Part shown: in pieces, positions 4,901 through 45,500 of the stretch
Layout of the letters: each line of letters opens with the position of its first letter
Numbering within the stretch: position 1 is the stretch's first letter
Source: Scenedesmus sp. PABB004
Lineage: Eukaryota
Assembly (NCBI GenBank): GCA_014905635.1
Contig: JABVCE010000016.1
Location: 434,001 to 498,000 of the forward strand
Direction: 5' to 3'
Length of the DNA: 64,000 nucleotides
The notes under the pieces: model-generated
Told to the model about the DNA's origin: nothing
What the model saw: only the letters and a program-made list of their open reading frames with translations
Databases searched by the model: none
Position numbers and translations under genes: made by a program

Positions 4901-6290
4901 CGTCGAGGACCCGACCTCGCCCACGCCCGCGGCGGTGGACGACGGCTTCCTCATGGTGCGCCGCCGCGGGGCTCTGGGGGGCAGTGAGGGTTCAGGGTTC
5001 AGGCAGAGCGTCAGGCCCTGGAGGGGGTGTGGGTTCGCTCGGCCCGCGCCCGCTCACGCGCGCCCGCGCCCGCCCCGCGCCGCCCGCGCCGCGCCGCGCC
5101 GCGCCGCGCCGCAGGTGTCGGCGCGCCTCTCCAACGACCAGGAGGCGCTCTACCTGGCGCTGGACAAGTACAAGGCCGCCGTGGCGCAGCTCGCGGGCGT
5201 CGCGACGAGCCGCGTCGCGGTGCTGTCCTTCCTAACCGACGCGCCGGCGACGAGCCTCATCGGCCGCCGCCGCGCGGCGCGGCGCCGCCTCGCGGCCGCC
5301 GGCGGCGGCGGCGACAGCGACGGCGACGCGCTGTGGGAGCCGCCGCTCGGCGGCGGCGCCGCAGGCGGCGTGCGCGGCGCGCTGCGGTCGCTGCTGCAGC
5401 GGTCGAGCGGGACGCTGGAGGTGTACAGCCGCGTCGCGACGATCTCCAAGTCGGACGCGGACGCGATCACGTCCCGCATCTCCAACGAGACGCGCCAGGC
5501 CGAGTTTGGCGCGGCGCTCGCGGCGGCGGGGCTGCGCCTCGTGGCCGGCTCGATCAGCGTGCGCTCCGCCGACGCGGGCGCGCCGGGGAGCGGCGGCTGG
5601 GGCCTGCCGCGGCTCAGCATGTCCGACCCGAGCACGCGGCGCATCATCATCATCGTCGCCGCGAGCGTCGGCGCGGGCCTGGTGCTCCTGCTCGCCGCCT
5701 GGGCGGTCAGCTGCTGCCTGCGGCGGCGGCGGCGCAGCCGCGCCGCGCCCGCGGGCGCTCCGTCGCAGCAGCAGTTCCTCACCAGCCCGCCTGGCGGCGG
5801 CGGCGGCTGGGCCGGCAGCGGCAGCGGCAGCGCGACGCCCGGCTCGAGCGGCAGCGGCGGCGGCCGCCCGGGCGGCGGCGGCGGCGGCCGGACGCTGTTC
5901 GGCGCGCGCGCCGCGCCCGCGGCGCCGCCGCCCGCGCCTGGCGGGCGTCCGGCCAACCCCTTCGCGGGCAGCAGCGGCGCGTTTGTCAGCGGCCTCGCGG
6001 GCGGCGGTGGGCGCGGCGGCAGCGCGGGCTACGCGCCGCCGCCGCCCGCCGCCGGCGGCGTCCCGGCCGGCGGCTTCACCGTCGCCGGGCAGACGTTTGC
6101 GACGCGGCGGGAGGCCGAGGAGTTTGCGCTCGCGACCGCGCTGCAGCGCAGCCTGCACGAGTCGGGGCCGCCGCAGCACTTCCTGCCGCACGCGAGCGCC
6201 GGCGGCGCCGCGCCGCCGCCCTGGCGGGCGGCGCCGGAGGGCCCGCAGCCCTATCCGAACATTCAGTACGCCCCGCAGCCGCGGCGGTGA
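1959..6290 (+). CDS. Leishmanolysin/GP63-like zinc metalloprotease (peptidase M8), type I membrane protein with EGF-like domain; ~8 exons
   Basis: Signal peptide (RRALALYLALLLL), propeptide CGH, zinc motif VLVHELTHALGF, LENEGGQGSAMAHWEYRWFQ/GELM, MSRITLAFMQ/DTGWY, EGF-like CTVGGTCVAGRCYCNLAYTGPSC, TM IIIIVAASVGAGLVLLLAAWAV, TGA at 6288-6290. Confidence 0.9.
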
Positions 6291-8746: not shown

Positions 8747-13128
<4,382 letters not shown>

Positions 13129-16300: not shown

Positions 16301-18074
16301 ACCCTGGTTTGTGGTGTGGCGTCGCGGCGTGCTGCCGCGCGTGCGCGCCACTTGGCGGCGTGGGGCGCAGGGCGCGCCCCTGCCAGGCTCAGCCCCTGCC
16401 TGCCACTTGGCACAAGTGGCAGGACGAGCCTCGGCAGGTTCACACGGCTCGCTCAGGCGGCTTGCTCGCGCGCTCGCTCAGGCGGCTGCTGGCGCGGCCG
16501 CCAGCCGCGCTGCGGAGCTGCGGGCTCAGTCCAGGCCGCTCAGCCGTGCGCGCGCGCGGCAGCTGTTGCACCCTTTGCTTGCGCTGGGCTGCAGACTCGC
16601 GGTGCTCGCGGTGCTCGCGAACAGCCAGTCGCGGGGCAACACGTCGCGTGCAAGCTATGTGCGCCGCTGTGCTGACGCGGCGCGCGGCACTCGCGCGCAG
16701 GCAGCGCATCGGCCAAGCACCACATCGCTCGACACAGGCCGCGACGCCGCACGCCGCATGCAACGCACGGCCCAGCACTGCGCTCGGGGCCACAGCCGCG
16801 CTGTACCTGGCCTGCGGTCTTCACGCGCTTGGCCGCCGCGTCCGCTGCCGCCTGGCGCTCCCCGGCGGGCTTGGCGCTGCGGCGGCGGGGCGGCGGCGCG
16901 GCGTTCGCCGCAGGCGCTGCGCGGGCGCGCGGCCGAGGCTGCGCGCCGGCGGGCACACTGGCCGGCAGCCGCGCCGGCCGGCGGCGCCGCCCCGCGCACC
17001 TGCTGCCGCCGGCGCCGGCCTTGGCGCCCGCCGGCGGGAGGGTGCGCATCCACGCGGCCACGACGTCGCGCGCGAGGCGGCGCACGTCGCCGCTGTCGTG
17101 CTTGCGCAGCGCGCCGACGACCTTGGCCGACTTGGTCGCCTGCACAAACGCCCGGCTCACGGGCAGGGCCTTGAGCAGCGCGAGCGCCTCGACCAGGAAC
17201 GCCGCCGCCTCGTCAGACTCCTCCTCCATCGCCGCGAGCATCCAGCCGCTCACCACGTCCACGCCGCCGCGCGCCATGAACTCCGACAGCACCGCCGGCG
17301 CGCTCAGGCCGAGCACCGTCACGGGCAGCGTGCGCGCGAGCGCCGAGCCAAACGCCGGCAGCGCGCGCAGCAGCGGCGCGACCGACGCGGGGTCGCTCAC
17401 GGCGCCGGCGCTGTTGATGTAGGGCAGCAGCAGGTCGGTGTACTTGTCCACGTCGCCGCCGGGGCCGGCGGCGGCGCCGCCGCCGCTGCCGCTGCCGCGC
17501 GGCGCGGGCGCCCGGGGCGGCGCGGCGCCCTTGCGCGCCTCCTTCATCATCTTTTCGCGCACGGTGAGGCAGGCCTTTTTGAGGTGCGGGTTGACGCACG
17601 TGTGGCAGCGCCCGCAGCGCTGGCTCTTGCGGATCTGCGGGAACAGGCTGCGCCGGCGCTTGCGGCTCGAGGAGCGCGAGCCGCTGCGCCCGCCCGCGCC
17701 GTCGTCGTCGTCGTCGCTGTCCTCGCTGCCGCGGCGCCGCTTGGCGCGCGGGCCGGCCCCGGGCCCGCCGTCATCGCTCGGCCCCCCGCCCGCGCCGCGC
17801 GTGAGGCTCTTGGCCCGATCGGCCAGGCTCAGGCCGTCGTCGTCGGAGCTGGACTCGGAGCCGCTGTCGCTGCCGGAGCCGCTGTAGGAGCCGCTGTCGG
17901 ACGCGCTGCCGCTCGAGCCTGCGCGCGGCGACGACGCGGCGCGGCGCGGGGCGGGCGGGCGGCGTGAGGAGGAGGCCGGGGATCGACCGCACCCGGCCGC
18001 CGCGCGGCGCCGCGCAGCCGCGATCGCGCGGCGCGGGGGCCGCGGGCGGCGCGCGCGCAGCAGCGGCGGCGGCA

Positions 18075-18105
<31 letters not shown>

Positions 18106-18286
18106 GCCCGGCGCCAAGGCCCGCGCGCCGCACCCCGCGCGCCCGCACCCACCACCACGCACCTGAGGATCGCTCGGACATGGGCGCGTCGCTCGCGCGC
18201 CGCGCGCGCTCGGCCTCGTCCGGCGTCGGCGCGCCGCCGCCGCTGCTGTCTGCCGCCGCCGCGGCGCCCGCGCCGCGCGGCATCAT
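13367..18286 (-). CDS. PNUTS/PPP1R10-like PP1 regulatory subunit: Cys4 motif, TFIIS N-terminal domain, RVxW motif, Q/P-rich region, C-terminal CCCH finger; ~7 exons
   Basis: Exons join in frame: RCGRCHTCVNPHLKKAC; TND (FMARGGVDVVSGWM...LKALPVS...KVVGALRKH...LARDVVAAW); RRRVCWRAERELVAVRWF; ARMEHARER; CKFFSRGGCPKGDACTFRH. Domain order matches PNUTS. Confidence 0.75.
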
Positions 18287-19306: not shown

Positions 19307-21753
19307 ATGAGCGGGGTGCAGCCGCCGGCCAACCCGGACCCGCTGCGCGAGACGGCGCGCTACACAAAGGTCGCCGACCTCAGCCACGGCAGCTTTGGCT
19401 TCGTGCAGCTCGCGCGCAACACGGAGACGCAGGAGCTGGTGGCGATCAAGTTCATCGAGCGCGGCGACCGCGTCAACAGGCGCGCGCGCGCGCGTCGCGG
19501 CGGCGGCGGCCGCAGCGCCGGCGCGCAGGGGCGCCGGGGCCTGTGCTGGCCCTGCTGGCCGCGCGCCCCGCCGCCGCCCACGCGCTCGCCCCCTGCCCCC
19601 GGACCCGCAGGTATGTCGAGGCGGAGATCCTGAACCACCGCATGCTGCGGCACCCGCACGTCATCGAGTTCAAGGAGGTCTTCATCACGAGCGAGTACAT
19701 CTGCATTGCCATGGAGTTTGCCAGCGGCGGCAGCCTCTTCACGTGAGCCCCCGCGCGCGCCGGGGCAGCAGTGGGCGCGGGGAGCAGCAGCGGGCGCGGT
19801 GGCGGCGCGGCGCGAGGAGCAGCGGCGCGAGCAGCGCGCGGAGGGCGCGGGGCGCTCACGCGCCGGCCGCCGGCCGCGCGCCGCGCAGGTACGTGCAGCG
19901 CGCGGTGCGCTTGAAAGAGGCGGCGAGCCGCTGGTTCTTCCAACAGCTCATCATCGGCCTCGACTACTGCCACCGCCGCGGCGTGGTCAACCGGGACATC
20001 AAGCTGGAGAACACGCTGCTGCAGGCGCGCCGCGGCGGCGCGGCCAGCTGCCAGCTCGCAGCGCGAGCGGCGCGGCGCTGGCAGCGGCGCGGCGCCGGTT
20101 GCGCCGCCCCGACCGCCGAGCGCCGCCCGCCCGCCGCGCGGCCGCCGCGCCGGCCGCCGCAGATGGTGCAGGGCCTGCCGCTGCCGCTGCTGAAGATCTG
20201 CGACTTTGGCTACAGCAAGGCGCACTTCATGAGCGCGCCCAAGTCCAAGGCGCGCTGCGCCGCGCGCGCGCCGGCCCGCGCGCCGGCTCGCGCGCGGGCT
20301 CACGCGCCGCGCCTCTCCCCGCGCGCCCCGCCCCAGGTCGGCACGCTCGCGTACATGGCGCCCGAGATCATCCGCGCGACCGGCAACTACGACGGCAAGA
20401 AGGCTGACATCTGGTGCGCCGCGCCGCGCCGCGCACCCACCTGACGCGCGCGCGGCGGCGCGCGCCGGGCGCGGGGGGAGGGCGCGCCCGCGCATGCCCG
20501 CGCGCCCGTCGCGGCGGCGCGCTCTCGCGGCGCGCGGCGCGTGCGTGTGACCTGTGTGTGTCTCCCCGCGCGCGCGCAGGAGCTGCGGCGTGATGCTGTA
20601 CGTGATGCTGTTTGGGCAGTACCCGTTTGAGACGCAGCAGCCGGGCGGGCCCAAGCTCGAGCCGGACCGGCGCATCCGGACGATGATGGACCGCATCGTC
20701 AACATGCAGGTGGCCTGGGGCTTTGAACGCAGCTTTGAACGGGCGGGCCGCGGGCTCAGGGTTCAGGGCTCAGGGTTCAGGCTCAAGGGGTCCTGGAGAG
20801 GACCGGCGGGGCGCGCGGCTCGCCCGCCCTCACGCGCGCCGCCGCGCGCCGCCGCCGCGGCCGCCGCCGCCGCAGTGGGCCATCCCAGGCGGCATCGAGA
20901 TCAGCGCCGAGTGCCGCGACCTGCTCGGCCGCATGCTCGTGCGCGCGCCGGACGAGCGCATCACGATGGCAGAGATCCACCGCCACCCCTGGTTCACCGC
21001 CAACCTGCCCGTCGAGGTGCGGCGGCGGCGCGTGCCGGCGGCGCGGCGCGGCGGTGGCGGGAGGGGCGCGGGCTCGCGCGCGCGCGCACGCGCGCGTCGC
21101 GCGCCGCCGCCGCCGACCGCCCTCACCGCTGCCGCTCTGCCCCCCCCCCCACCCCTAAACCCTACCCCCCCCCTAAACCCCGCAGGCGGTGTCGATGAAC
21201 GACAGCTACCTCAACGACGAGGACTACAGCGCCGTGCAGGCGCGCGCGCACGCACACGCCCGCCCGCCCGCCCTCTCTCGCCCTCTCTCGCCCTCCCCCT
21301 CTCTCGCCCTCCCCCTCTCCCTCTCTCCCTCTCTCCCTCGCTCCCTCTCTCCCTCTCTCCCTGCTCAACCCTCAACCCTTGGCCCCCGCCCCCCGCCCCG
21401 CCGCTGCCGCCGCGCGCAGAGCGAGGCCGACATCAAGCGCATCCTCAGCGAGGCGCAGACGCCGGGGCCGAACAAGTACAACTTTGACAGCGCCGGCGGC
21501 GAGGGCTACGAGGACGGCATGATCGACGACGCGATCGACGAGGAGTTCAACGAGAACGAGCAGTCGTTCAACCCGGTGCGCGCCGCGTGCGTGCTGCGTG
21601 CGCGCGTGTGCATGTTGTTGCGTGTGCACGCCGCGTGCGTGTGTGTGTTGCGTGTGCGTGTGCGTGTGTTGTGTTGTTGTTTGTTGTGCGTGTGCGACGC
21701 GGCAGAGCACGGTGCGCCCCGGCCGCAGGCAGGCCTGCTGACGCGCCGCCCGC

Positions 21754-24532: not shown

Positions 24533-25141
24533 TCACACGTCGCTGCGCCAGGCGTGCGCGCAGGTCGCGCACACATACTTCTGGATGGTCGAGCGCTCTT
24601 GGGCGTAGGTTCCGCCGCTCATGATGGTGTGCACCTGCGCCCGCTTCTCGCCGCACGCGGGGCAGCGCACCTCGGTGCTCACGTGCGTCCCGCCGCCGCC
24701 GACGCTCTGGCCCATCAGCTCCTCCCACACGCGCTCCGCGCGCAGCTCCTCGGCGCGCCGCGCCGCGCGCGCCGCCTGCTGCGACGCGGGCGCGAGCGCG
24801 GCGGCGCCGAGCCGCGCAACCTCGGCGACGCCCCGCTGCCCCGCGAGCAGCGCGGCCGCGACGCCGTCGGCATGGCGCAGCCCCGCGGAGAGCGTGCGGC
24901 AGCGGGCCTTATAATCGGCGCTGCCGCCGCACGCGGCGTGCAGCTCCGCCTCGAGCGCGGCCGCCAGCTCTTGCAGCCGCGAGGCCGGCGGCGGCGGCGC
25001 CGCGCGCGCCGGCGTGGCGCCGTCCTGCAGCTGCGCCGCCACCGCTGCGACGTGCGCCGCCAGCGCAGCTCGCAGCATCTCCACGACGCGCGCGCGCAGC
25101 CCTGCCTCGATGCCCCGCTGCGACTCCTGCTGATGCTTCTG

Positions 25142-25217
<76 letters not shown>

Positions 25218-26196
25218 GCCTGCTCCTGCTGCTTGGCCTTGGCAGCCGCCGCTGCTGCGGCCGCCACCTGCGCCCGCCAGGCCGACACCACCTCCGCGGC
25301 CAGCGCGCGGACCTGTGGGTGCGGGTGGTGCGACTTGAGCGCCGAGAGCTGCTTGCCCGCGCCCGTGGCGCGCAGCAGCTCCGCCGAGACTGGCCACATC
25401 AGCAGCCGCCGCAGCAGGCCCAGCGTGCCGTGCGCGTCGCCGGCGTCCGCGCCGCCGGCCTCGGCGCCGGCGGGCCGGCCCGCCTGCTGCTGCGCCGGCG
25501 CCGCGGCGCGCGGCAGGCGGTCGCAGAGCTCGCGCAGGCCCGACGCGACCTGGCGGCGCTGCCGGCTCGCCAGCGCGGCGTTGGCGGCGGCGATGACATC
25601 CGACAGCGGCCGCCCGCGCGCGCCTGCGCGTCGGCGCTCGGCCGGCCGGCCCTGCCGGCCTTGCCGCCGCCGCCGTCGTGGCCGGTGGCCAGGCGGAGCG
25701 ACATCAGCGGCGGCCCCGCCGGCTGCAGCGCCACGGGCCCCGACCACGCCTCCTCCAGGTCCACCACGCGCACCGCCGCGTTGAGCGCGCGCTGCAGCCC
25801 CGCGAGGCCGCCGTGCCCCGGCCGCTGCTGCTCGCCCTGCTGCCCCCGGCCGCCGCCGCCTGCGGCGCGCCCTCGGCCGCGCCGGCCGCCGGCGGCGGCG
25901 GCGGCGCCTCGGCCAGGCGCGCCATCCAGGCGAAGCGGCCGCTCGCCGCCGCTCGCTCGCGGCGCTGCCGCCGCGCGGCCAGCTCGGCCAGCAGCGCAGA
26001 GGCAAATGCGAGCGGCAGCTCCAGCTTCTCGGTGCGCAGCTGCGTGCACAGCGTGGTGTAGGTGTTGAGGTCGCTCGAGACGGCGTCCTGCACGTCCGGC
26101 GGCAGCGTGCCCACCAGCGCCGCGACGCCGCGCACGCTGAGCGCCGCGAGCGCACCACCCAGCGGCGGCGCCGCCGCCGGCGCGCCCTGCTGCTCC

Positions 26197-26251
<55 letters not shown>

Positions 26252-27160
26252 GCGCGATGTGCGCGGCGAGCGCGGCGCGCGCGCCCGCCGCGGCCGCGGC
26301 GGGCTGCAGCACCTCGAGCAGCCGCGCGAGCGCGCCGTCCTGCGCGGCAGACTGTCGCCGGCGCCTGGCGGGCACGCCGCTGCAAAAGGTCGTTGTGCCA
26401 GCATACTCGCCCACGCTGTCGCGGACCGAGCCGACAGAATTGACAAAGTCCACCACCAGCGGCTGCACGCGCGGCGGGTCGCCCCCGCCGGCGCGGCGAG
26501 GGCAGGGGCGGGTGACGCGGCCCAGTACCTGCACCGCGCGCGCGCCAGACAGCGCCCTGCGGCGGCGGAGCGGCGCGGCCGGCAGCGTTGGGCGCCGAGC
26601 GGGCGGGCGGGCGGGCCTTCCCCGGGCGCGCGGCCGGGGCACGCGGGGTGTCCCGCGCCGCGCGCGCCGCGCTGCGCGGGTCAACCAACCGGTCAATGAA
26701 GAGCGCCTTGAGTCGGGGGTCGTCGTAGCCAGTCTCAAACTTGCTGCACACGACCAGCAGCCGCGCGTCGCCGGGGCGCACGCCGCGGGGGTTGATGTCG
26801 CGCTCGCTCACCGCCACGGCCCCCGCCTCGCCCGCCGCCTCGCGCTCGCGCTCGCGCTCGCCGCCGGCGTCCGCGCCCACCTCCGCCTGCTCCGACCCGC
26901 CCTCGCGCTCGCTGTCCAGCTCGCTGCCGGGCTCCCCCGGCGGCTGCGCGCCGGGCGCGCTGCAGGACAGCGTGGACGCGTCGCGGCGCGGCCGCTTCCG
27001 CGCGCCGCCCGGCGGGGCCAGCTCCAGCCGCTCGGGCTGCTGGCCGCTGCCAGGCCCCGGGCCGCCCTCCTCCTCCGAGGCGGTGCCGAGGCCGTCGCTG
27101 CCGGCGGCGTTGCTGTCGCCGCCGCTGCTGCTGAGGCCGTCGCTGCCCACGCTCTCGCCC

Positions 27161-27215
<55 letters not shown>

Positions 27216-29498
27216 CCTCGTCGGCCGAGCCCGGCTCGGGCTCACTGCCTGCACCGCAGCCGCTGCTCTCGCCGCCGCTGCTCCTGGTGGTGGCGGCGCT
27301 CGCGCCCGCGCGCGCGGCGCTGTCGCAGGTGTTGCTGCGCCGCGCGCTGGCCGCGCCGCCGGCGCTCTGGCTGCCGCGCCGCGCCGGTGCCGGCTCCTGC
27401 CGTGCTTCCTGCTCCTGCTGCTGCTGCGCCGCCTGCTGCTCATCAAACGCGGCCAGCGCGGCGTCCCAGCCGCCCGTGGTGCGGCGGCGCTGCCGCGACG
27501 CGCCGCCGCTGCTGGCGGCGCGCTTGCGGCCGCCGCTCGGCGCGCCGCCGCCCGCGCCCTCCGCCGCTGCTGCGGCCAGGGGCGGGTAGGCGCCGCGCGT
27601 GAGCGCGTCCGCGTCCGCAGGCGAGACGGTCACGCTGCCGCTGAATGCGCCGTAAACCAGGGGCGCCGCGTCGCCGCGCGCCAGCGCCTCGGCGGCCGCC
27701 AGGTCCTCGCGCTCGCCTGCGGCGCGGGCGGCGCCCGGCGGCGTCGGCGTCGGCGTCGGCGGTGCCCGCCCCTGCCGCCGCGCGCGCCCCGCCCTGCGCC
27801 CGCGCCGCGTGCGCGGCCGCACCTGCGCGCCGCAGCGCTGCGGCCGCGACGTCCGCACGCGCGCCGAGCAGGCGGCGCAGCTCGGCAGCGTACCACGCGA
27901 CGTGCTGGCGCGAGCGCACGACCAGCATCGCCCGAAACTCCCCGAGCCCGGCGTCCTCGGCCTCGGCCCACGCCGCCATGAACCGCTCCGCCACCGCTGC
28001 TGCTTTGACCGCCACGAGCGTGCGGCTGGCGCTCGCCGCGGCGACGAGCAGCTCCGCGGCCAGGCCGCCGCCGCTGCCACCGCCGCCGGGGCCGCCGACG
28101 CCGGGGCCGCCGCCATCCCGCGCCTCGGCGGCTTCGAGCCGCGCGAGCGCGGCGCGCTGGTCGGGCCCGAGCGCGGCCGCGTCGATGTGGAAGCGGGGCG
28201 TGAGGGACACGAAGCGCCCGAGCGGGTTGAGCACCAGCCCGTCCCCGGCCGCGGCGGCGAGGGAGTACGTGTGGAAGGGCTCGTGCTGCGTCGCCGGCGT
28301 GAGGCGCTCGGGCGGGTGCGCGTCGTCGCCGGCGGCGCCCGGCGGCGCCGGCGCCGGCGCGGGTACGACGCCGCCGAGCGCGTCGAGCAGCACGGCGCGG
28401 CGCACGCCAAAGAGCTGCAGCGCGCGCGGGCTGGGCGTGGCGGTGAAGCCGACGTAGGTGAGCCACGGCGGCTGCTGCGCCGCGAGCGCGTCGCTGCCGC
28501 TGCTCGCCGGCGCCGCGGGCGCTGCGGCGCCGCCTGCCGCGAACGCGGCGAGGATGGCGGCGATTTGCTGGCTGCTGCTGCCGCCGTGGTGGCGGTGCGC
28601 CTCGTCGGCGATGATGACGACACGCCCGGGCCGCGCCGGCGCGGCGGCGGCGCCCCCCGACGCGGCCGCGCGCGCGGCCGCCAGCGTGGGGCCGCGGGCC
28701 GCGCCGCCGCCGGCCGCGCCCTGCTGCGCCGCCGAGTCGCCGCCGCCACTGGCGCCGCTGGCGCCCTGCCGGCGCGCCTGGCCGTGGCGCCAGAGCGCCG
28801 TGAGCTTCTGGATCGTCGTGAGCACCACGGCCGGGCGCCGCGGGTCGCCCAGCGGCGCCGCGAGGTGCTGCGCGAGCGCGGCGCTGCTCGCCGCGCGCGC
28901 GACGGCGCGGGCCGGGAGGCCGTTGCCTGCGGATGCGCGCGCGGGCGGGCGCGCGGGCGTGTCGCCGCCGCCGCACAGCACAGCGCGGCGCCCGGCTCCC
29001 CGCACGCGCACACGCGCACCTTGCAGGAACGCCGCGAGCGTGTCGCCGAGCTGCGCATCGAGCTGCAGGCGATCATTTACGACCAGCACGGTGTCGACGC
29101 GCCGCCCATCGCCGTCGGCCGTGCGCAGTAGCGCCGCCGCGAGCGCCGCGATGGTCAGGCTCTTGCCGCTGCCCGTCGCGTGCTGCAGCAGGTAGTTGAC
29201 GCCGCCCCCGCGGCGCGCTGGCGCGCCAGGCTGCTGGTCGGACGACCGCAGCGCCTTCACCAGCGCCACCACGGCGTCCACCTGCGGTTGTGGCGGCGGC
29301 GGCGGCGTCGCGCGCGCACGCGACGCCCAGCAGCGGCGCTGGCCACGCAGCGCAGTGGCGCGCCTGGTGCGGCCGCCCTGCGCCGCCGGCGGTGCCCGCC
29401 GCGAAGAGATGCTCTACAGCACGCCAGAGCGCATCAGCCTCGGTCGGCAGCTCCGCCGGCGGGCCGCCGGGGCCGTGCGCGGCGGTCGCCAGCGTTGG
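24533..29498 (-). CDS. Type I restriction R-subunit (HsdR)-like SF2 helicase/translocase apparently fused to a TFIIS-like module; spliced; start codon unresolved
   Basis: RPHQ/VDAV, NYLLQHATGSGKS, VLVVNDRLQLDAQL, TTIQK, IIADEAH, YVGFTATP, FHTYSL, AMLVVRSR, AFSG, LLVVCSKFETGYDDPRL..LFIDR/ALSG..AVQVLGRVTR, VVDF; then LRRLLMWPVSAELLRATGAGK...VVSAWR, LEAELH...YKARCRTL and CPAC-x27-CATC..WR. Confidence 0.85.
25138..25216 (-). repeat. (CAG)n polyglutamine tract between the TFIIS N-terminal and central domains
   Basis: Long (CTG)n run on + strand. Confidence 0.9.
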
Positions 29499-29799
29499 CT
29501 GCGGCGCGCGCGCTCGCGCCGCGCGGCAGGCTGCCGGCGTCGCGCCGGCGTCGAGTGCGGGGCGCGGCTGTGGGGGCGTCGGCAGCGTTGCGCGGCAATT
29601 CGCGCGGGCCAATGTTGCTGCGACCGCCCGACTCGCAGGTGACTGCTCGCGCACCGAGCAGGAGGGCCCCCCGCAATGCCACGGCCGCTTTCACTGCGTC
29701 GATCGTTCCGTTCCGACCGCCCCGCACCGCCGCAGCTCCCACCTCGACAGGCGCCGGCGGCGAGCAGACGCGCGCGCCGGCCTGCCCGCACCGCGCGCG

Positions 29800-32700
29800 A
29801 TGGCGCTGCGTGCGGCGCAGCCGCAGCTGGGACTGGCATCGCGCCGGGCAACGCCCCGCGCCGTGGGCCGCGTGGCGCGGCCGTCTGCTGCGCCATGCCC
29901 CGCCGTCGGCGCGGGCCGCCGCTGGCCCGCTCGCCTCCGGGCCGCGGCCCCGGAGGCGCCCGAGGTTGATGCGCCGCTGGAGGTGCGCGGTGGCCAATCG
30001 GGGGCGCGCCCAGCGCGCCAGGCGGGCGGCGAATGGGGGCGCCCGCCTGGGGCCGCGCCATTCGCGGCGCGGCGCCCCGCGTGGCGCGGGGGGCGCGGCC
30101 CTGGGTCCTCCTGGGCGCCAGGCAGGCATCCGGCATTGCTGCGGGCGGCCCGGCGCCGCGGCGGCGCCGCGGCGCGCCCCGCCGCGCGGGCAGCAGCGGC
30201 GGCCGGCCGCCGACCGCGCCGCGCCGCCGCCAGATCCCCACCACCGAGGAGAGCACCAAGCCCTTCCCCTACGAGCTGCCGCTCGACCCCAACACCAAGG
30301 CGCTCGCGAGCGTGCCGCTGCCGCTGTTCTACCCCGGCGTGCTCGCCCTCGCCGCCGTGGCCGGCCTCGCCGGCGCGACGGTCGGCCGCGGGCTCCCCGG
30401 TGCGCGCCGACTGCAGCGCGGCGGCTGCAGCGCGGCGGCGGCGGCGGCCGGGCGGGCGCGGGGCCGGGGCGGCGAGGGAGGCACACGCCCGCAGCCGCGG
30501 CAGCGCGGCGCCCGCCGCGGCGCCGCCCGACCCCCGCGCGCGCCGCGCCGCCCCCCGCGCAGTCTCGCCCGAGGCCAAGCCCATCACGGCCGCGCTCGTG
30601 GGCGCCGCGCTCGGCGCGGGCGCGCTGTACGCGGGCTACCAGGCCAAGCAGAAGCGCGACGGCGCGGCGGTCATAGACCTCTACAACTACATCGTCGAGG
30701 TGTGGCCGCGCATTGCTGCTGCGCATTGCTGCCGCGCATTGCTGCCCCGGCAGCGGCGGCGGCCGCGCGCATTGTGCTGCTGCCGGCGGCGGCCGCGCGC
30801 GTTGCTGTCGGTGGGGCGTGCGGGCGCCGCCGCGCATTGCCGGCGCGCACCGCCGGCGGCCCCGCCCCGCCCGCGCCCTCACCCCGCCCTCACCCCGCGC
30901 CGCCGCGCCCGCCGCGTGCGCCGCAGCTGGACGACCCGACCGAGCTCACGCTCGACGCGGTCGCGGCGGTGGGGTCGCGCTACGGCATCGACATGCACAA
31001 GTCCCAGCTCGAGGGCCTGCAGAAGATCTACGGCCAGTACCTCGAGACCATCATCCCCACTGGCGACGCGCAGCTCACGTGAGACCCCGCTGGCCGCGCT
31101 GCGCCGCGCGGGCCGCGCCGCCGCGGCCGGGCGCCCGCGCCTCTGCGCGCGCCGCCGCCTCTGCGCCGCGGCGGCCGACCCGGCCCGCCTGCTGCCGCGC
31201 CGCGTCGCGCCGCAGCGGGGACGAGGCGGCCAAGGTGCGGCTGTTCAAGGACGTGCTCGGCCTCGCCGACGAGGACGCGGCGCCGGTGCACATCGAGGTC
31301 GGGCGCCGCCTGAGCCGCATCGGGTTCGAGTACAAGGACCGCACCGCGCAGGTGTGAAGCCCCGACCCGCACCGCACCGCACCGCACCGCACCGCACCGC
31401 CGCGCGCGGGACCACGCGCCGCCGCGGCGCCGCCGCGGGGCGGGGCCAGCCGCCGCCGCCGCCGCCGCGCCCGGCGCGCACGGTCGCCGCCCCCGGGCCG
31501 CGCGCCGCGCCCGAACCCGTCGCGGCGCGCCTCTCGCGTCGCGCGCAGTTTGAGCAGCGCAAGGCCTTCCAGCGCCTCGTGTACCTGAGCTACATCGTAT
31601 TCGGCGACCAGAAGGCCGCCTTCCTGCTGCCCTGGCGCCGCGTGTTCAACCTCACCGACGCGCAGCTCTTTGTCGCGCGCCGCGACAACGCGCGCGCGAT
31701 CTTCACCGGCCACCTCGCCGCGCGCGGCGGCGACTTCCCCGCCGAGCGGTGCGCGCCCGCGGCGGCGGCGGCGGCGGCTGGGAGCGCGCGCACGGCCTCC
31801 TGCGCCGCCCGGCGCAGCAGCGGCCCCGCGCCGCGTGCGCCGCGCGCGCCGCCGAGCCCCGCGCCGCCGCCCCCTGTCGCCGCGCGCCGCCCGCCGCGCA
31901 GGCAGTTCCTGCGCGAGCTGCGTGACTACCAGACGGCGATCAAGCTCTTTGACGAGAGCGCGGAGGAGGCGGTGCGGGCGGCGATGCGCGGCGTCGTCGA
32001 GGCGTCGCTCGCGCGCGCGGTCGAGATCACGCGCGCGCCCGGCAAGGCGCGCGACCCTGCGGCGATCGTCGAGGTGCGGCGGCGGCCGGCCGCGGCCGCG
32101 GCGGCGGTCAGCCCTGCCCCTGGCGCAGCGCGCGCGCGGGGGAGCCCGCCGTGCTCCCAGCCCGGCACACCACACCACCACCACCACCACCACCCACCGC
32201 CGCCGCGCGCGCGCCGTCGCACCACACACAACACACGCAGGCGCTGGGGCACGTGCTCGACTACAGCCGCAAGATGGCGCGCCTCGCCAACGACGACGAC
32301 CTGGTGCCGGGGCTGGGCCTGCCCACGATCCACGGCGGGCCGTGGGACGTCGAGACGCGGCGCCGCGACGTGCGCGACGCGTACAAGTGAGCGCGCGCGC
32401 GCGCGCGCGCGAGCGCGAGCGCGAGGGGAGCAGAAGCCGGGCCGCGGCGGCGCGGGCGACACGCCTCGTCGCTCGGGGACTGCCCAGCGCCGCCGACAGC
32501 AGCAACCCCCGAGCGCACGCGCTCGACACACACACCCACGCGCGCCACGCCGCGCCGCGCCGCCCCGCCGCGCCGCCCCGCGCAGGGCGTACGCCGAGGA
32601 GGTGGTGTCGCGCGAGGGGGGCTGACGCCGGCGATCGACGCCGACCTGAAGGAGCTCGCCGTCATCCTCTGCCTCGGCGCCAAGGAGGCCGGCGAGGTGC

Positions 32701-35210
32701 GGCGCCTCGGCCTGCGCGTGTGCGGCCCCCGCGCTGCGCCTGCTGTGTATGGTCTCCGCGCTGGCCCTGCCGTCCCCGCAGCGGCTGCGCCTGCTGCGCC
32801 TGCTGCGTGTTCTTGCGCTCGCCCCTCGCGCCGCGCCTCACGCGCACGCGGCCGCCCGCCCGCGCCGCACGCCGCGCCGCGCAGGTCCGCAGCAACATCG
32901 CTGGCGCGCTGTACAAGCGCCTCCTGCGCGAGGCGGTGACGACCCGGCGCATTGACGAGGCCGCCTCGCCCGCACAGGTGCGCGGCGCGCGCGCCCTCCC
33001 GCCCGCCGCGCGCCTGGGCCGCCGCCTGCCGCCCGCCGCCCGCGCCCCGTCCCTCCCTCCCGCCCACGCCCGCACCGATCCCGCCCACGCCCGCCCGCAC
33101 CGACCAATGCGCGCCCGCCGGCCGCGCCAGGTGCTGGGCGAGCTGGTCGAGCGGTCGGGCTACTCACCCCAGGCCGCGGCGGAGCTGCACAAGAGCCTCT
33201 ACCGCACCAAGCTCGGCCAGCTGGTCGCCAAGAAGAAGCTCACGCCGGAGGAGCAGGAGGAGCTCAAGCGCATCCGCCGCATCCTCTGCATCCCCGGCGA
33301 CGCCGCCGCGCAGGTGCGTGCGCGTGCGCGACCGCGTGCGCGCGACCGCGTGCGCGTGTTTGTGTGCGTGCGCGCGCCTTGGCTGCCGTCGCCGCCCTCC
33401 TCACCCTCGCACCCACGCCCCGCGCAAATCACTCGCACGCGGCTTGCACGCACGCGCCCCACCCCCCGCCGCCGCGCGCGCCCCTCGCCCGCGCCGCCGC
33501 CGCACGCGCGCCTCACCGGCGCCACCGCGCTCAACCCTTCTCCCGCCAGGTGCTGCGCGGCACCGCGGGCCGCGTGCTGGAGGAGGTGCTGGCCGACATC
33601 TACCTCATGGGCGCCAAGCCGGTCGGCGAGTACGAGGCGGAGCGCGTCGACGCGACCGTGCGCGACCTGGCGCTCGACCGCTCCGTCGCGCTCGACGTGC
33701 TCAAGGCGCGCCGGCGCGGGAGGGAGGGGGGGGGAGGGCCGGCGGGAGGGAGGGAGGGGCGGCGGGAGGGAGGGAGGGGCGGCGCGGCGCGGCGGCGGCG
33801 GGGCGAGGCGGCGGCGGGGGGCGAGGGAGCGAGCGAGCGGGCGCGTGGGGAGGAGTGCGCGGGGGCGGGCGCCGACCGGGCGCCGGCTGCCGCGCCGCGC
33901 CGCGCAGGACGTGACGCGGCAGCGCTTCAAGGCGTACGTGCAGCAGGCGCAGAAGGAGCGCGACCGGCGCAGCGCGGCGCAGGTGCTCAAGAAGCTCGTC
34001 CAGGTGCGGCGGCGCGCGCCGGGCCCCGCCGCGCCTGCAGCGCGCCGTCGCCGCCCGCCCAGCACGCCCCACGGCCTCGCCGCGTGCGTGGCTAAACTCA
34101 ACCCCCGCCGCGCCGCGCCGCCGCCGCTGCGCTGAATTGAATTGACTGAACCACAGTTCAACGCGCTCGTCGTCACGCCGATCCTTGAGAAGGTCAAGGG
34201 CGCGGGCAACGAGGCCGCCAAGAAGGAGCTGGCGGACCTGCTGGTGCAGGCCGCGGAGAAGGCCAAGCAGGAGGAGGCGGCCGAGGCGGCGGCCAAGGCC
34301 AAGGAGGCGGGCGAGGCGGCGCCGGCCGGCGCCGAGGCGAGCAGCAGCGGCGCCGACGCGGGCGCGGCGGAGAGCAGCAGCAGCAGCAGCAGCAGCGCGC
34401 CGGAGGGCGAGCAGCCCAAGGAGCTGCAGGTGCGGCGCCGCGGCGCCGCGCGCACGCGCCCGCGCCTGCCTCGCCGCCCCCCTGTCTGCACCCCCCTCCA
34501 CCTCCTCCTCGCGCCCGCCCCTCCCCGCGCCCGCCCCCCCTTCTCACCCGCCCTCCTCTCGCGCCCGCCCCTCCCCCCTCCCCTGCCCCGCCAGGTCAAG
34601 GCGGAGGAGGGCGCGGCGGAGAGCGTGAAGAAAATGATTGCCGCGCAGCGCGGCGAGTTTGGGGACGAGGAGCGCAAGGGCCAAAAGGAGATCACGCTCG
34701 GCGACGACCTCGAGCCCCCCGTGCGGTGAGCCGCGCGACGCGGCGGCGGGGTTCAGGGTTGAGGGTTCAGGGGGGGGGGGGGGGTCGCTCGCTCGCTCGC
34801 TCGCCTCCCCCGTCCCTCGAGCGCGCTTGGCCCCACCACAACTCACTCCTTGCTGCTCGCTCAAACTGCTCGCTCAAACTGCCCGGCCCGCCGACCCTGA
34901 CTCGCCCAACCAATCAACCGACCGACCAACCGCTGTTCAAACGCTGTTCAAACGCCGCAGCGCTGAGCTGTACAAGAACTACCTCATGTACAGCATGAGC
35001 GGCGACGTGGTGGAGCTGCCCGTCGGCGGCGTCATCCGCAAGAAGAGCTCCCTCGTCACGCGCCAGGTGCGTGCATCGTGCGTGTGCGTGTGTGTGTGTG
35101 TGCGCGTGCGCGCGTGTGGGGCGGGGCGCGGGGCGTGCGGGGGCTGCGGGGCGGCGCGCGGGGAGGGGGGAGCGGGAGGTGGAGAGAGGGGGGCGCGCCC
35201 CTCTGGGCGC

Positions 35211-41200: not shown

Positions 41201-42547
41201 CGATCATCATCATCGGCGTCAGCCAGCTCGTGGAGGTGGGCGTGGCAATCGAGCTGTTCAAGCTGCACCTGCGCGACTTCATCGTCTGGCTCTGCGCCTT
41301 TGCTGTGACCACCTTTGCCGGCGTGGAGCTGGGGCTGATGAGCAGCATCGCGTGAGTGGACCCCTGACGCCAGCGGGCGCGGGGGCGCTGCGCGCGCCGC
41401 CGCCGGCTGGGCGCGCCGCACGCCGCACGCGCCGACCCTCGCTGCGGCTCCTCCTGCGCCCCCGCAGGCTGAGCCTGGTCATCCTCGTCCTGGAGGCCTC
41501 CTTCCCCCACACCGCCGTGCTGGGCCGCATCGGCAAGACCAACGTGTACAGGCGCGCCGCGGCTGCGGCGGCTGCTGCCACCTCCGCTGCTGCTGCTGCC
41601 GCCTCCGCTGCGGCTGCTGCCGCCGCGCCCGGCCGCCGTCGTGTCCAGCCGCCACCATGCCCAGCCCGCACCGAGTCTCACAGCAGCGTGTGACACCCCG
41701 CCCGCGCGCGCCGCCGCCGCCGCCGCAGGTCCGTGTCCAAGTACGAGGGCGCCGAGACGACGCCGGGCATCGTCGTGGTGCGGCTGGACGCGCCTCTGTT
41801 CTTTGCCAACACGGTGCACTTTGAGTCTGCCATCACACACTACCTGGCCGACGGCGACGACGCAGCGCGCGAGGCTGGACGTGAGCTGCCGCTGCCGCCC
41901 GCCCGCGCGCGCGCCGCTGCCGCGCGCGCGCGGCTCTGCTCTTTTTGCCAGCTCGCCCACACCGCCGCCGCTGCCCCGGTCAACCCGTGGCTCCCTCCCT
42001 CACCACACGCGCGCTGCAGTGAGCGGCGTGAAGTTCCTGGTCCTGGACCTCACGCCCGTGACGCGCAGCGACAGCAGCGGCGCGCACATGCTGCGCGACC
42101 TCGCCACCGAGTGCACCGAGCGCGGCGTGCAGCTGGTGCTGTGCAACCCCAACGACAAGGTGGGCAGAGCCGCTGCAGCCGCTGCGCCGTGCGCACGCCG
42201 GGGCGGACTGGGGGGCCAGCAGCAGCGGGCGCGTACCGCACGCCCCGCCGCAGCTCACCGCCGCCGCGGGCTGCTCCGCTCCGTTCCGCTCCGCTCTGCT
42301 CCGCTCTGCTCGGCTGTGCTGCGCTCAGCTCGTCTCGATGCTCGAGCGCATCGCCATCTACGACGTGCTGCCCCGCGCCTGGGTCTTTGTGCACACGCAC
42401 GACGGCGTGCGCGCCGCCGCGGCCGCGCTGCACGGCGGCGAGCTCGGCGGCCTCGCCGGCGCCGCGCTGCCGCGCGACGGCGCCGACCTCGGCAAAGACG
42501 TGGACATGGTGCTCCTGCCGCGCGCCTCCAAGGACGGCCGCGAGTGA
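38214..42547 (+). CDS. SulP/SLC26 H+/sulfate transporter with STAS domain, copy 1; spliced
   Basis: [101 protein letters not shown] and DSSG. Confidence 0.95.
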
Positions 42548-45500
42548 GCTGACGGCGGACTGATCTGGACCAATGGGTGGGGAGCAGCAACTGACGTGCT
42601 GCGTGCGTTTGCTTTGCCCGGGCGCAACCTGTTTGGTAGAGGCTTGACCAGCGGGTTGGGCTTTCCATGATCCCTTTGTTGGCCGCGCGCAGGCTGCAGC
42701 TGCGCGCGGCGCGCCCGCACCCCACACGTGTGCGGCGCGCTACGTTGTGACGGGCGCGGCAGACTCTGTCGAGGCGCAGAAATGTGCGCCGGTGCCGCGC
42801 GCGAGCTGGGCGCGCGAGCTGGGCGGCCTCTGTTCTGGACGTGCGGGGGCTCGACTCATCATCACTGCGCTGCGCTCAGCAGTCGTTCTGCGGCGGTCAG
42901 GCTCGGACGGTCGGAGAGAGCTGCTGCGCCGCAGCGAGGCCGTGGGGGCTGGGCGTCGAGTTGCCGGGCAACCAGCGCGCGCGTCAACGTTCGCCCACCG
43001 GGCGCCGTGCCCAGCTCCAGCTCGCTGCGCGCCCGCTCCAGGTCCAGCGCTCCAGCTCCAGCTCGCTGGCACGCTCAGCACTGGTCACGCACGGCGCGGC
43101 AGGCACCAGAAGCCGCGACGCGCGGCGGCTCGCCGCGCCGCGCGCCGCGTGCCGCGCCTCGGCGCCGCCTCGACAGGCGTCCGGGCCCACCAGCGCCCGG
43201 GGGACGCAGGCGGGCGGCCGCACGCGGCAAAACCCGCTCGTCACGCTGGAACTCGACGTTCCAAGCCCAAGCTTCGGCGCTGGGTCTTCCCCGCCGCGCC
43301 GCTCCCGCGCGTGCGCGTTCCGTCGTCGCGCGACACACCCAGGCGTCGCGCGGACCCCTGCCGAGCGGCCGCCAGAGACAACCACACCCGCCCGCCGCCC
43401 CGCCCTGCGCGCTCGAGCTGCCGCTCGGGCGGCATGGAGCGCACATTCGAGCACGTCGACAGCCGGACGCCCAGCATCAGGCGGCCGTCGGTGACGGCGC
43501 CGGACTACGGGCCCCCGCTCGACTTTCCATTCCCGCACCCCCAGGGCGGCGCCGCGCCCTGGAGCGGGCGGGAGGAGATCGAGTCCATCAAGGGCGTGCT
43601 AGCCGGGCGCAAGACCAGGTGCGCCAGGGGGTGAGCCGGCGGTGGCCGCAACGCGGCGGCGCTCGCTCACCGCGCCGCGCCGCGCTCGCACCGCCGCGCA
43701 GACGCGCCCGCCAGAAGCGCGGCGCATGGGGCTACGCCTCTGCCCTGCTGCCCTGCCTCCAGTGGCTGCGTGGCTACAACCTCAAGAGCTGGCTGCTGGT
43801 GCGGCGAGGCGCGGGCGGCGCGGCCGGCCCGACCAGCCCCGATCCAACCGACCTGCTGCGCACCACGCTGGCCGCTCACCCGCCGCCACCTCCCGCAGTT
43901 CGACATCCTCGCCGGCATCGCCGTCGGCTTCACCGTCGTGCCGCAGGTGCGCGCGGGGCGCCCGCCGCCGCGCAGCACGCGCGCGCGCCACCGCCGCTGG
44001 GCGGCCGCGACTGACGAGGCCGCTGCCGCCCGCTGCCGCCCGCTGCCGCGCGCGGCGCACGGTCAGGGCATGAGCTACGCCAACATCGCCGGCGTGCCTG
44101 CGGTCATGGGGCTGTACGGTGCGCCTCGCACAGCACAGCGCGCAGCACGCAGCACGCAGCACGCAGCGCGCAGCGCACAGCTCGCCACGCGCGTCGCGCG
44201 CCCCCGCCGCCTCCTGACCCGCGCGCCCGCTGCCCGCCACACACGCACGCCCGGCAGGCGCGTTCACGCCGGTGCTCATTTACTCCCTGTTTGGCAGCAG
44301 CCGCCAGCTCGGCGTGGGCCCGGTCGCGGTCACGAGCGGCCTCATCTTCAGCGGCATGGCCGGCGTGGTCCCCGGCTATGACGCCATCACAGACCCCAAC
44401 GACCCGGGGCCCGAGCTCGCCGCCGTGCAGGCGCGCCGCCGCGCCGCCGCGGCTTGACTGCAAAGCAGTGCCGCCGTCTGGCCGCTGGGCTGACGTGCCA
44501 GCCGGCGCATCAGCCGCGGCGCCCCGGCTGAACCCTGTCTGCCTGAACCCCGCCACAGGCCGAGTATAACAGGAACGTCATCCAGCTCGCCTTCCTCGTC
44601 GCCTGCCTCTACACCGCGGTGCGACGCGCGCGCTGCAGCGCCTGCGCCCTCGCCCGCTGCAGGCGCACGGCTCATGGGCCGTGCTGCTGCCGGCGCGCGC
44701 CGCTGCCGACGCGCGCGCTGCGCGGTGCTGCTGCTGCCGCCCTGCACCGCCGCCAGGTGGGCCTGTTCCGGCTGGGCTTCCTCATTCGCTTCCTCAGCCA
44801 CCCTGTCATCACCGGTGCGCCGCGCGCAGCGCCGAGGGGCCGCTGCCACTGCAACCAGCCCCGCGCCGCGCGATGTGGCGCGCCGCGCCGCCCGCTGGCC
44901 TCGAGCCACACCGCACCGCACCTGCCGCGCCCGCAGGCTTCACGAGCGGCGCTGCGCTCGTCATTGCGACGGGCCAGGTCAAGTACCTCCTGGGGGTGAG
45001 CTAGCAGCGCCGCCTCGGCTCGCCTGCCTGCGCGCGCCACGAACACCGGGCCCTGAGCCTCCTGCCGCGTGCGCTGCCGCTGCCAGGTGAGCTACAAGAA
45101 GCAGGACACGCTGCAGGGTGAGCTGTCCAACATCATCGCCCAGCTGTCAGCCGGCAAGTTCAAGTACCAAGAGTTCCTCATGGGCATGGCCATGCTGGGC
45201 TTCCTCATCAGCCTCAAATACATCCAGCGCAAGTGAGCCAGACCCTGCGCACGCCGTTGCAGCCGCCGCGCGCTCACTCTGGGCTCTCAAGCTCACACCG
45301 CGCGCGCCCCGGCGCCGCCCCGCCGCCCCGCCGGTCAGGTGGCCGCGCACGCTCTTCCTGAAGGCGCTGGGGCCCTTCATTGCCTGCGTGGTCGGCATCG
45401 CCGTCGTTGCGGGCTTTGGCTGGGGCAACGGCAAGGGCCCGATCAAGATCGTCAAGACCATTCCCTCGGGTGCGGGCCGCCGCACCGCACGGCGCTGACC

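Follow-up and report, generated by a model that had tools for sequence, protein, structure and literature searches.

An HsdR-type DNA motor fused to a TFIIS-like module in Scenedesmus sp. PABB004 and other algae

The locus and the gene model

We analyzed a 64-kb stretch of DNA from Scenedesmus sp. PABB004 (hereafter the window, to which all coordinates refer) and found one multi-exon gene on the minus strand, from about 29450 to 24533. Its minus-strand translations give an HsdR-type superfamily 2 (SF2) motor followed by TFIIS domains I, II and III in order. A first-pass annotation of the same DNA had proposed this combination of an intron-containing, nuclease-less HsdR-type motor with TFIIS N-terminal, central and zinc-ribbon domains; domain matches, an alignment to human TCEA1 and helicase matches in the PDB that are confined to HsdR bear out the proposal, and all the SF2/HsdR motifs that it listed are present in the translations. 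By sequence comparison, the fusion is real at the family level, and the window gene is the local orthologue of a conserved, uncharacterized protein of green algae and haptophytes. We propose that this protein is a DNA translocase tethered to RNA polymerase II (Pol II), a reading to which we give about an even chance and which leaves the direction of movement and the outcome open.

The window is 71-83% G+C throughout and holds 108 stop-free stretches of at least 300 codons; hence, open frames alone are weak evidence in such GC-rich DNA. Compact orthologues align collinearly to the window across frames -1, -2, -3, -2 and -1. Removal of the GT-AG introns 2-4 restores collinearity with the orthologues, and inside these introns the periodicity in G+C between third and second codon positions (GC3-GC2) is about zero. 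The features of the gene are as follows, with P numbers denoting homologue representatives, L numbers denoting metagenome loci and a slash marking a splice junction.

29364..29450, minus strand: leader exon ending in RPHQ (Q motif); frame agrees with orthologue leaders
29282..29363, minus strand: intron 1, 82 nt, GC-AG, donor CAG/GCGCGCC; RPHQ/VDAV junction identical to P0005 and P0006
29020..29281, minus strand: exon with Walker A (GSGKS) and motif Ia; PF18766 and ResIII matches, family invariant columns present
28927..29019, minus strand: intron 2, 93 nt, GT-AG, in frame; excision restores the P0001 spacing from AF.. to ..APLG, GC3 periodicity about zero
27823..28926, minus strand: exon with TTIQK, DEAH, GFTATP and FHTYSL, the end of lobe 1 and start of lobe 2; translation, domain matches, invariant columns
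27717..27822, minus strand: intron 3, 106 nt, GT-AG; collinearity with orthologues, loss of periodicity
26690..27716, minus strand: exon with AFSG, a long Ser/Gly/acidic low-complexity insert and motif V (KFETGYDDPRL); weak T1R_D3 match, collinear with P0006 and P0007
26557..26689, minus strand: intron 4, 133 nt, GT-AG; FIDR/ALSGARAVQVLGR junction as in orthologues
25906..26556, minus strand: exon with motif VI (QVLGRVTR), VVDF and the post-motor helical domain; 41% identity to P0188 through ..GRFAWMARLAEAPPPP
25800..25905, minus strand: frame change 1, required length 2 mod 3, a GC-AG intron or one missing base; GT absent, periodicity switches, many GC..AG pairs fit
25691..25799, minus strand: conserved linker strand ..VVDLEEAWSGPVALQP..; aligns to P0188, P0001 and P0006, beta strand in the L005 orthologue model
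25625..25690, minus strand: frame change 2, required length 2 mod 3, 66 nt; GT absent, insertion or deletion (indel) likelier than intron
25265..25417, minus strand: TFIIS domain I (TND/Med26 helical bundle); Med26 E 2e-10, Foldseek template modeling (TM) score 0.83 to the Arabidopsis TFIIS LW domain
25142..25231, minus strand: polyglutamine (polyQ) linker, a (CAG)n run; translation
24782..25114, minus strand: TFIIS domain II-like central domain with basic motif YKARCR; TIGR01385 and TCEA1 alignments, TM 0.78 to the Bye1 TFIIS-like domain (TLD)
24545..24676, minus strand: C4 zinc ribbon (domain III), SGGTYAQER replacing the RSADE hairpin; TCEA1 alignment, ribbon comparison, structure model
24533..24535, minus strand: TGA stop codon; sequence

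All four introns of the first-pass annotation fit the orthologues; however, the first is of the GC-AG type, and two further frame changes had been missed. We accepted intron 1 despite its GC donor because its junction matches the orthologues exactly. This donor type is unique to intron 1, the other three confirmed introns being GT-AG, and all four introns have the acceptor CGCAG/G and 83-92% G+C. Pure trinucleotide runs occur in the coding sequence as the (CAG)n run that encodes polyQ between TFIIS domains I and II and as an (AGC)n run (27160-27230, minus strand) that encodes poly-Ser in the motor insert and misleads GC3-based frame calling.

The two extra frame changes were confined to about 25905-25800 and 25690-25625 by alignment to an open reading frame (ORF) of Flechtneria rotunda (Sphaeropleales; 1820 aa), which carries a DEAH/TATP motor plus a TFIIS module. 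We searched both stretches for a GT dinucleotide and found none. For frame change 1, enumeration of GT/GC-AG introns gave 95 stop-free candidates, every one with a GC donor. A donor at 25922, which shares the heptamer GCGCGCC with intron 1, was rejected because the Flechtneria alignment shows coding sequence to about 25905. Frame change 2 is more likely an indel, since an intron comparable to the other four would not fit into 66 nt. At the 5' end, none of the 108 codons that precede RPHQ in the leader frame encodes Met, and there is no in-frame ATG. The sole minus-strand ATG in 29800-29282 lies at 29434; it is shifted by one base from the leader frame, and its own frame ends six codons later. 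One added base would put it in frame. A 45-nt intron (29422-29378) that would give an in-frame start from 29434 was set aside: the other introns are twice as long, and the RPHQ match would be lost.

If the internal frame breaks and the missing start are real mutations, then the gene has decayed and at most a truncated motor is made. Restoring the frame takes one additional base (or a deletion of 2 mod 3) at each of three sites, none of which has a GT, and at about 80% G+C open frames say nothing for function (108 ORFs of at least 300 aa in 64 kb), all of which favors decay. Yet we consider decay quite unlikely: no invariant motor residue has been lost, nor have the four ribbon Cys, W125 or YKARCR, the TFIIS module is 38% identical to that of the Flechtneria ORF over its whole length, with nearly identical ribbons, and on either side of each break GC3 periodicity stays in the frame expected. 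In addition, the three defects all run in one direction, which fits deletion errors in the assembly; they may be such errors, and real frameshifts are possible too.

The fusion in relatives and the origin of its motor

A proteome search for the same fusion, as suggested by the first-pass annotation, was productive: the fusion was found in Volvocales, Cymbomonas, Flechtneria and a haptophyte. A word-indexed search gave four Volvocales models of 1744-1992 residues with PF18766/ResIII, T1R_D3, Med26 and TFIIS_M in order. The fusion orthologues include Pleodorina starrii PLESTB_001101100, Chlamydomonas incerta HXX76_015515, C. schloesseri HYH02_011939, Edaphochlamys debaryana HYH03_001241 and Cymbomonas tetramitiformis CYMTET_28904, and Cymbomonas belongs to a different class of Chlorophyta. 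These named orthologues have 40-53% motor identity to the window, carry an identical ribbon sequence SGGTYAQER and are annotated merely as 'hypothetical' or 'TFIIS N-terminal domain-containing protein'. Hence, the earlier statement that no protein of this architecture has been described needs qualification: we found no paper on an HsdR-type helicase-TFIIS fusion or its eukaryotic clade (subscription journals lay outside the search), but uncharacterized database entries exist. A by-name search in a limited length range returned no Chlamydomonas reinhardtii orthologue, which does not imply absence.

Compact forms have 938-1085 residues and few low-complexity inserts, and look suited to biochemistry and cryo-electron microscopy with Pol II. 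Compact P0007 has the fusion domain order of the Volvocales, and P0006, the representative of the Cymbomonas cluster, ends inside Med26. Cymbomonas P0157 (1120 aa) was called a fusion from the TFIIS-like tail and ribbon in its sequence, without a domain scan. TFIIS domains were also found in 4 of 53 further representatives (P0020, P0048, P0057 and P0070). The cluster of compact forms contains fragments from Phaeocystis antarctica; hence, haptophytes also carry the fusion. The Flechtneria record looks like an ORF of a transcriptome assembly, judged from its name.

We also scanned metagenome contigs with custom hidden Markov models (HMMs) and obtained 70 loci, eight of which have the helicase and the TFIIS module. 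Both parts lie in one uninterrupted ORF in four of these eight (L002, L003, L005 and L011); L002 (1085 aa) and L005 (946 aa) are complete, ribbon included, and L003 and L011 end at the contig edge. The linker motifs ..LEEAWSGP.. and ..RPLSDVIAAANAAL.. join the motor and TFIIS halves in the window as they do in these single-ORF relatives.

The single ORFs bear on whether the gene model is an artefact that joins a helicase gene to a neighboring TFIIS paralogue. This locus is known to us from its DNA sequence alone, which speaks for such an artefact. However, it is countered by the uninterrupted ORFs of L002 and L005 together with the one-ORF Flechtneria record, by the linker motifs that span both parts, and by the TFIIS frame, which has no Met until the middle of domain I, in agreement with the earlier remark that the TFIIS part lacks a start codon of its own before its first domain. 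We regard an artefact of this kind as extremely unlikely.

For the motor, we scanned the unaltered exon pieces with Pfam and found PF18766 (the HsdR-type 'SWI2_SNF2' lobe, E 1.8e-15) and ResIII (E 5e-11) on the piece at 27446-29413. The sole match on the piece at 26560-27720 was T1R_D3, below threshold (E 0.0079); this domain is above the cut-off in several compact orthologues. The Pfam scan of the window pieces gave no Snf2 or Mfd family match, and NCBIfam hsdR (TIGR00348) matched the window at E 2.9e-10. Family profiles matched EcoR124I HsdR in the PDB (E 3.2e-18 and 1.8e-18), with no second helicase at E 0.001 among the 33 PDB sequences listed; a single-sequence phmmer search of the PDB with the helicase exon gave no match at E <= 0.01. 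The AlphaFold model of the compact L005 orthologue has a predicted local distance difference test score (pLDDT) of 72.1 and a predicted TM score (pTM) of 0.53, a pTM at which it is uninformative on domain packing. With this model, EcoR124I HsdR took Foldseek ranks 1-10 (E 5e-14 to 3e-12), followed by RadD and a Type ISP enzyme.

The window retains 36 of 36 invariant columns of the family alignment (A1), plus motifs V and VI, and from these intact helicase motifs we predict translocation on double-stranded DNA (dsDNA). Like HsdR (EcoR124I; TIGR00348; PF18766 + PF04851 + PF22679), the algal protein has two RecA lobes with HsdR-style motifs and then a helical domain. Unlike HsdR, it lacks an N-terminal nuclease and HsdM/HsdS partners, is interspersed with long low-complexity inserts, ends in a TFIIS module and belongs to a separate clade (starred branch values of 99 and 100, below).

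Orthologue leaders 5' of RPHQ have about 16-104 residues, so short that they leave no space for a nuclease. The PD-(D/E)xK nuclease domain HSDR_N was found neither in the window pieces nor in the 11 TFIIS-fused proteins scanned, and was present in six canonical HsdR matches of the same scan. These results match the earlier view that there is little room for a nuclease. The window was also said to hold no hsdM or hsdS, and we found no N6_Mtase or Methylase_S among its 102 ORFs of at least 300 aa at E <= 1e-5, a scan that short or heavily spliced genes would escape. Six further window ORFs were domain-scanned separately from the 102.

The homologue search gave 656 representatives at E <= 1e-3, and the trees sample the best 150 of these 656. 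Entries were used if they had at least 560 residues and matched Walker A; fragments and four near-duplicate or truncated entries were excluded, the alignment was HMM-guided, and the trees are unrooted. FastTree (90 rows, 517 columns) split 42 nuclease-less sequences from 48 canonical HsdR sequences at a starred value of 100, and a quick IQ-TREE run on 52 hand-picked rows placed the 15 canonical rows on one side at a starred value of 99. Named members of the nuclease-less side are eukaryotes throughout, and many others are environmental. They include, besides the TFIIS fusions, Amoebozoa (dictyostelids, Pelomyxa, Entamoeba, Thecamoeba and Balamuthia), some of which end in a Surp module, the oomycetes Pythium, Lagenidium and Aphanomyces, which have WW at the N-terminus, and the dinoflagellate Durusdinium, in which the motor is joined to TAGT (TET-associated glycosyltransferase). 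Among the 53 representatives scanned, the partner domains were WW in five (P0024, P0042, P0071, P0072 and P0118), Surp in four (P0083, P0102, P0103 and P0153) and TAGT in three (P0034, P0061 and P0075). One Balamuthia member also has armadillo repeats. This eukaryotic nuclease-less clade appears undescribed in the literature.

WW and Surp modules occur in factors tied to the Pol II carboxy-terminal domain or to splicing. A role coupled to transcription in the clade as a whole would be in line with the WW and Surp fusions, but not with the TAGT fusions. The trees do not resolve the TFIIS-fused rows as a single clade: four label changes are required, at least two of which are forced by starred branches, and one forced change stems from a 724-residue entry that is probably truncated.

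Judged from the trees, the motor is not a recent acquisition by this alga. Since it sits in a eukaryotic clade, either the transfer from bacteria is old or the gene has spread among eukaryotes. The horizontal acquisition proposed in the first pass is therefore plausible only in one of these two forms and is not private to this alga; the motor shares its clade with those of Amoebozoa, oomycetes, a dinoflagellate and a haptophyte, apart from the sampled canonical HsdR. Type I restriction motors are usually taken as strictly prokaryotic, and these trees point to a eukaryotic branch with transcription-linked partners. The P0053 cluster (650 aa) is compact and nuclease-less, lies inside the eukaryotic clade and is known from short environmental contigs only; one of its source labels reads 'type I restriction enzyme R subunit', and the cluster could bear on the origin of the clade.

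A motor with this history might serve in defense or silencing, aimed at polymerases on foreign or transposon DNA, and defense against foreign transcription had been suggested in the first pass. The ultimate ancestry of the motor in a restriction system and its patchy distribution among protists are in keeping with this idea. However, the fusion proteins have no nuclease, the scanned window ORFs include no methylase or specificity gene, a target-recognition domain is absent, 29 pattern matches on viral contigs yielded no confirmed case, and the gene adjoins the housekeeping gene Tic110 in uniform G+C. Our analysis yielded nothing in support of the earlier suggestion, and we consider a defense role very improbable.

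The TFIIS module and its predicted place on Pol II

On the piece at 24536-25651, we found Med26/TFIIS-N by Pfam (E 2e-10) and NCBIfam TFSII (TIGR01385) at E 2.8e-16, the latter over model positions 22-270 of 300. The window module aligned to human TCEA1 residues 20-299, and the family profile covers TCEA1 4-302 of 304 (E 3.2e-36) and matches yeast TFIIS at E 5e-22. The profile matches expected by the first-pass annotation were obtained in part: PF18766, ResIII and Med26 were found on the window and TFIIS_M on the orthologues, but neither TFIIS_M nor TFIIS_C on the window. In the AlphaFold model of the window TFIIS piece (pLDDT 84.6), the ribbon strands are modeled. The best PDB matches of this model by Foldseek are TFIIS chains of Pol II complexes (E 2e-6 to 6e-4), and its TM scores are 0.83 to the Arabidopsis LW domain and 0.78 to the Bye1 TLD; matches of the ribbon to TFIIS and Rpb9-type ribbons are weak.

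Like TFIIS (TCEA1, Dst1), the module has domains I-III in the same order, end-to-end, with a YKxRxR-type motif and a C4 ribbon. It differs in forming the end of a protein that exceeds 1,000 residues and consists mainly of motor, in having a polyQ linker and in reading SGGTYAQER in place of RSADE (D to Q). The domain II motif Y-[KR]-x-[RKQ]-x-R is present in 18 of the 21 fusion proteins; in the alignment, YKARCR of the window falls on the same positions as YKNRVR in TCEA1 and YKARYR in yeast TFIIS. Awrey et al. reportedly showed in 1998 that the basic-motif residues of domain II bind Pol II.

The module might, however, not be docked on Pol II: the TND could plug the motor into the elongation-factor network, or the partner of the module could be Pol I, Pol III or some other enzyme that accepts a ribbon. 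Within the TFIIS part, no Pfam match is stronger or more constant than Med26/TND, the basic motif is missing in three of the 21 proteins, and Pol III genes, too, carry TFIIS and Bye1 (PMC4100922). These points are outweighed, in our view, by complete and ordered domains II and III, a ribbon in 20 of the 21 fusion proteins and the end-to-end TCEA1 alignment, which make docking away from Pol II improbable.

We compared the ribbons of 13 proteins and found the four Cys of CxxC...CxxC in 13 of 13 and the DE pair of RSADE in none, one ribbon having EE. The chlorophyte hairpin reads SGGTYAQER (once ..AEER), with YAQE of the window aligned to SADE of TCEA1, and the compact marine forms carry an unrelated loop. 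TFIIS is described as acting on the jaw and funnel of Pol II and stimulating cleavage through domain II and the RSADE module (PMC4100922). Since the RSADE hairpin is gone, reactivation of arrested Pol II by cleavage is unlikely, and on this sequence evidence stimulation of transcript cleavage by the fusion protein is unlikely as well. The module is hence not a working TFIIS, the acidic DE pair of its ribbon being missing.

A TFIIS that cannot cleave might act as a brake: it would fill the jaw and pore, exclude TFIIS and park the helicase on incoming DNA, slowing or stopping Pol II (e.g. at sites of replication or repair, as proposed for RECQ5), with translocation secondary. TFIIS acidic-loop mutants are dominant-negative. 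A brake would agree with the loss of the DE pair in 13 of 13 ribbons while the four Cys stay. It would also agree with RECQ5, whose jaw module competes with TFIIS and whose helicase sterically blocks elongation (PMC7073763). What makes a brake unlikely to us is the strict family-wide conservation of the ATPase and translocase motifs, which indicates that motor activity is under selection.

The proposed Pol II-tethered translocase would work as follows. The N-terminal two thirds are an HsdR-style SF2 motor, a predicted dsDNA translocase, that has lost its nuclease and has no methyltransferase partner nearby, and the C-terminal third is a complete TFIIS with a ribbon that lacks the acidic DE pair. 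Domain II, the linker and the ribbon would dock on the Rpb1 jaw, funnel and pore as in TFIIS, without stimulating cleavage, and domain I would connect to other elongation factors. The HsdR motor reels DNA toward its anchor; in the fusion, Pol II would replace the Type I methylase core as the anchor, and the motor would reel dsDNA against Pol II. Because the jaw lines the downstream DNA channel, the motor would work on DNA ahead of the polymerase. DNA might then be fed into a paused or backtracked polymerase and obstacles cleared, or a polymerase that cannot restart might be dislodged from the template.

Mfd, CSB/Rad26, RapA and CLSY-Pol IV likewise represent dsDNA translocases tethered to an RNA polymerase so as to move or remove it. 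These motors are unrelated to that of the fusion (RecG-like or Snf2) and dock at different sites; they serve as a working analogy only. Mfd and CSB act from the upstream side of the polymerase. The first-pass annotation had likened the fusion to Mfd/CSB, and this likeness is revised here. Docking of the TFIIS type on the jaw would face downstream DNA, as for RECQ5 (PMC7073763).

The Rpb1 jaw is the binding site of TFIIS domain II and of the Bye1 TLD alike (PMC4100922). RECQ5 (RECQL5) binds this jaw, in competition with TFIIS, through a module that resembles TFIIS domain II, and its helicase is thereby positioned on incoming DNA (PMC7073763); as an SF2 DNA helicase with such a module, RECQ5 is the nearest known working principle. 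RECQ5 differs in having a RecQ motor, a KIX-like mimic rather than a true TFIIS domain, and neither a ribbon nor domain I, and it is an animal protein. Bye1, PHF3 and DIDO are larger proteins in which a TFIIS domain II has likewise been reused to anchor them to the Pol II jaw (PMC4100922); they have neither domain III nor a motor, and their anchor is paired with PHD and SPOC readers. Polymerase-tethered DNA motors are thus already known, and what is new is the joining of a restriction-type motor to a whole, cleavage-dead TFIIS.

Several points weigh against a Pol II-tethered translocase. Scored on single exon pieces, TIGR00348 reaches 39.3 bits against a cut-off of 284.55, and TIGR01385 reaches 60 bits against 237.1; Pfam TFIIS_M and TFIIS_C give no match on the window's own sequence, though TFIIS_M matches orthologues. 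The full-length L005 model has the low pTM given above. The basic motif of domain II is absent or shifted in 3 of 21 proteins (P0157 of Cymbomonas, and P0020 and P0070), and its middle Arg is Gln in three Volvocales. With the hairpin lost in 13 of 13 ribbons, insertion of the ribbon into the Pol II pore is not guaranteed. HsdR is inactive by itself without the methylase core, and a loader for the motor was not identified in this analysis. The TAGT fusions of the same clade (3 of 53) point to DNA-base modification and not to transcription. The assembled frame is broken twice between the motor and the TFIIS part and has no in-frame start codon; therefore, the window copy could be damaged. Finally, we infer Pol II binding, the DNA engaged, the direction of movement and the outcome alike from a gene read here as sequence.

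A wider proposal, which we hold as doubtful, is that eukaryotes possess a patchy family of restriction-derived translocases that has been wired repeatedly to Pol II through TFIIS, WW and Surp modules. In the TFIIS fusions, the cleavage-dead ribbon would sense the backtracked pore and the jaw-anchored motor would reel downstream DNA, so that the protein would be a front-acting counterpart of Mfd that rescues or evicts Pol II without cutting the transcript. Known answers to arrested Pol II are TFIIS cleavage, pushing from behind (CSB/Rad26; Mfd in bacteria) and degradation. If correct, the fusion would be a fourth solution, with TFIIS docking minus its chemistry plus a loop-extruding restriction motor, and would provide a natural experiment on the non-catalytic role of the TFIIS ribbon.

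Neighboring genes in the window

Tic110 (29200-34132, plus strand) is divergent from the fusion gene and was matched at E 2.6e-31 and 1e-22 on two ORF pieces. The upstream region that the two genes share spans a few hundred bases and holds a single minus-strand ATG.

A second TFIIS-N/Med26 bundle (E 3.8e-8) lies about 6 kb downstream of the fusion gene on the same strand, in an ORF at 16543-18282 (minus strand). This ORF is a separate gene, in which a Cys-rich RCGRCHTC..C stretch precedes the bundle and no TFIIS_M or ribbon was seen.

Two STAS-domain ORFs, at 41473-42549 and 46637-47716 (both plus strand), gave near-identical matches (E about 1e-10 each) at the same ORF positions. By their sequence, the pair looks like a tandem duplication of a SulP-type transporter gene. 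Elsewhere in the window are genes for a leishmanolysin-like Peptidase_M8 (2026-4984, plus strand), a WW-domain protein (8954-11425, plus strand), a protein kinase (19311-20441, plus strand) and a DHHC palmitoyltransferase (59563-60585, minus strand).

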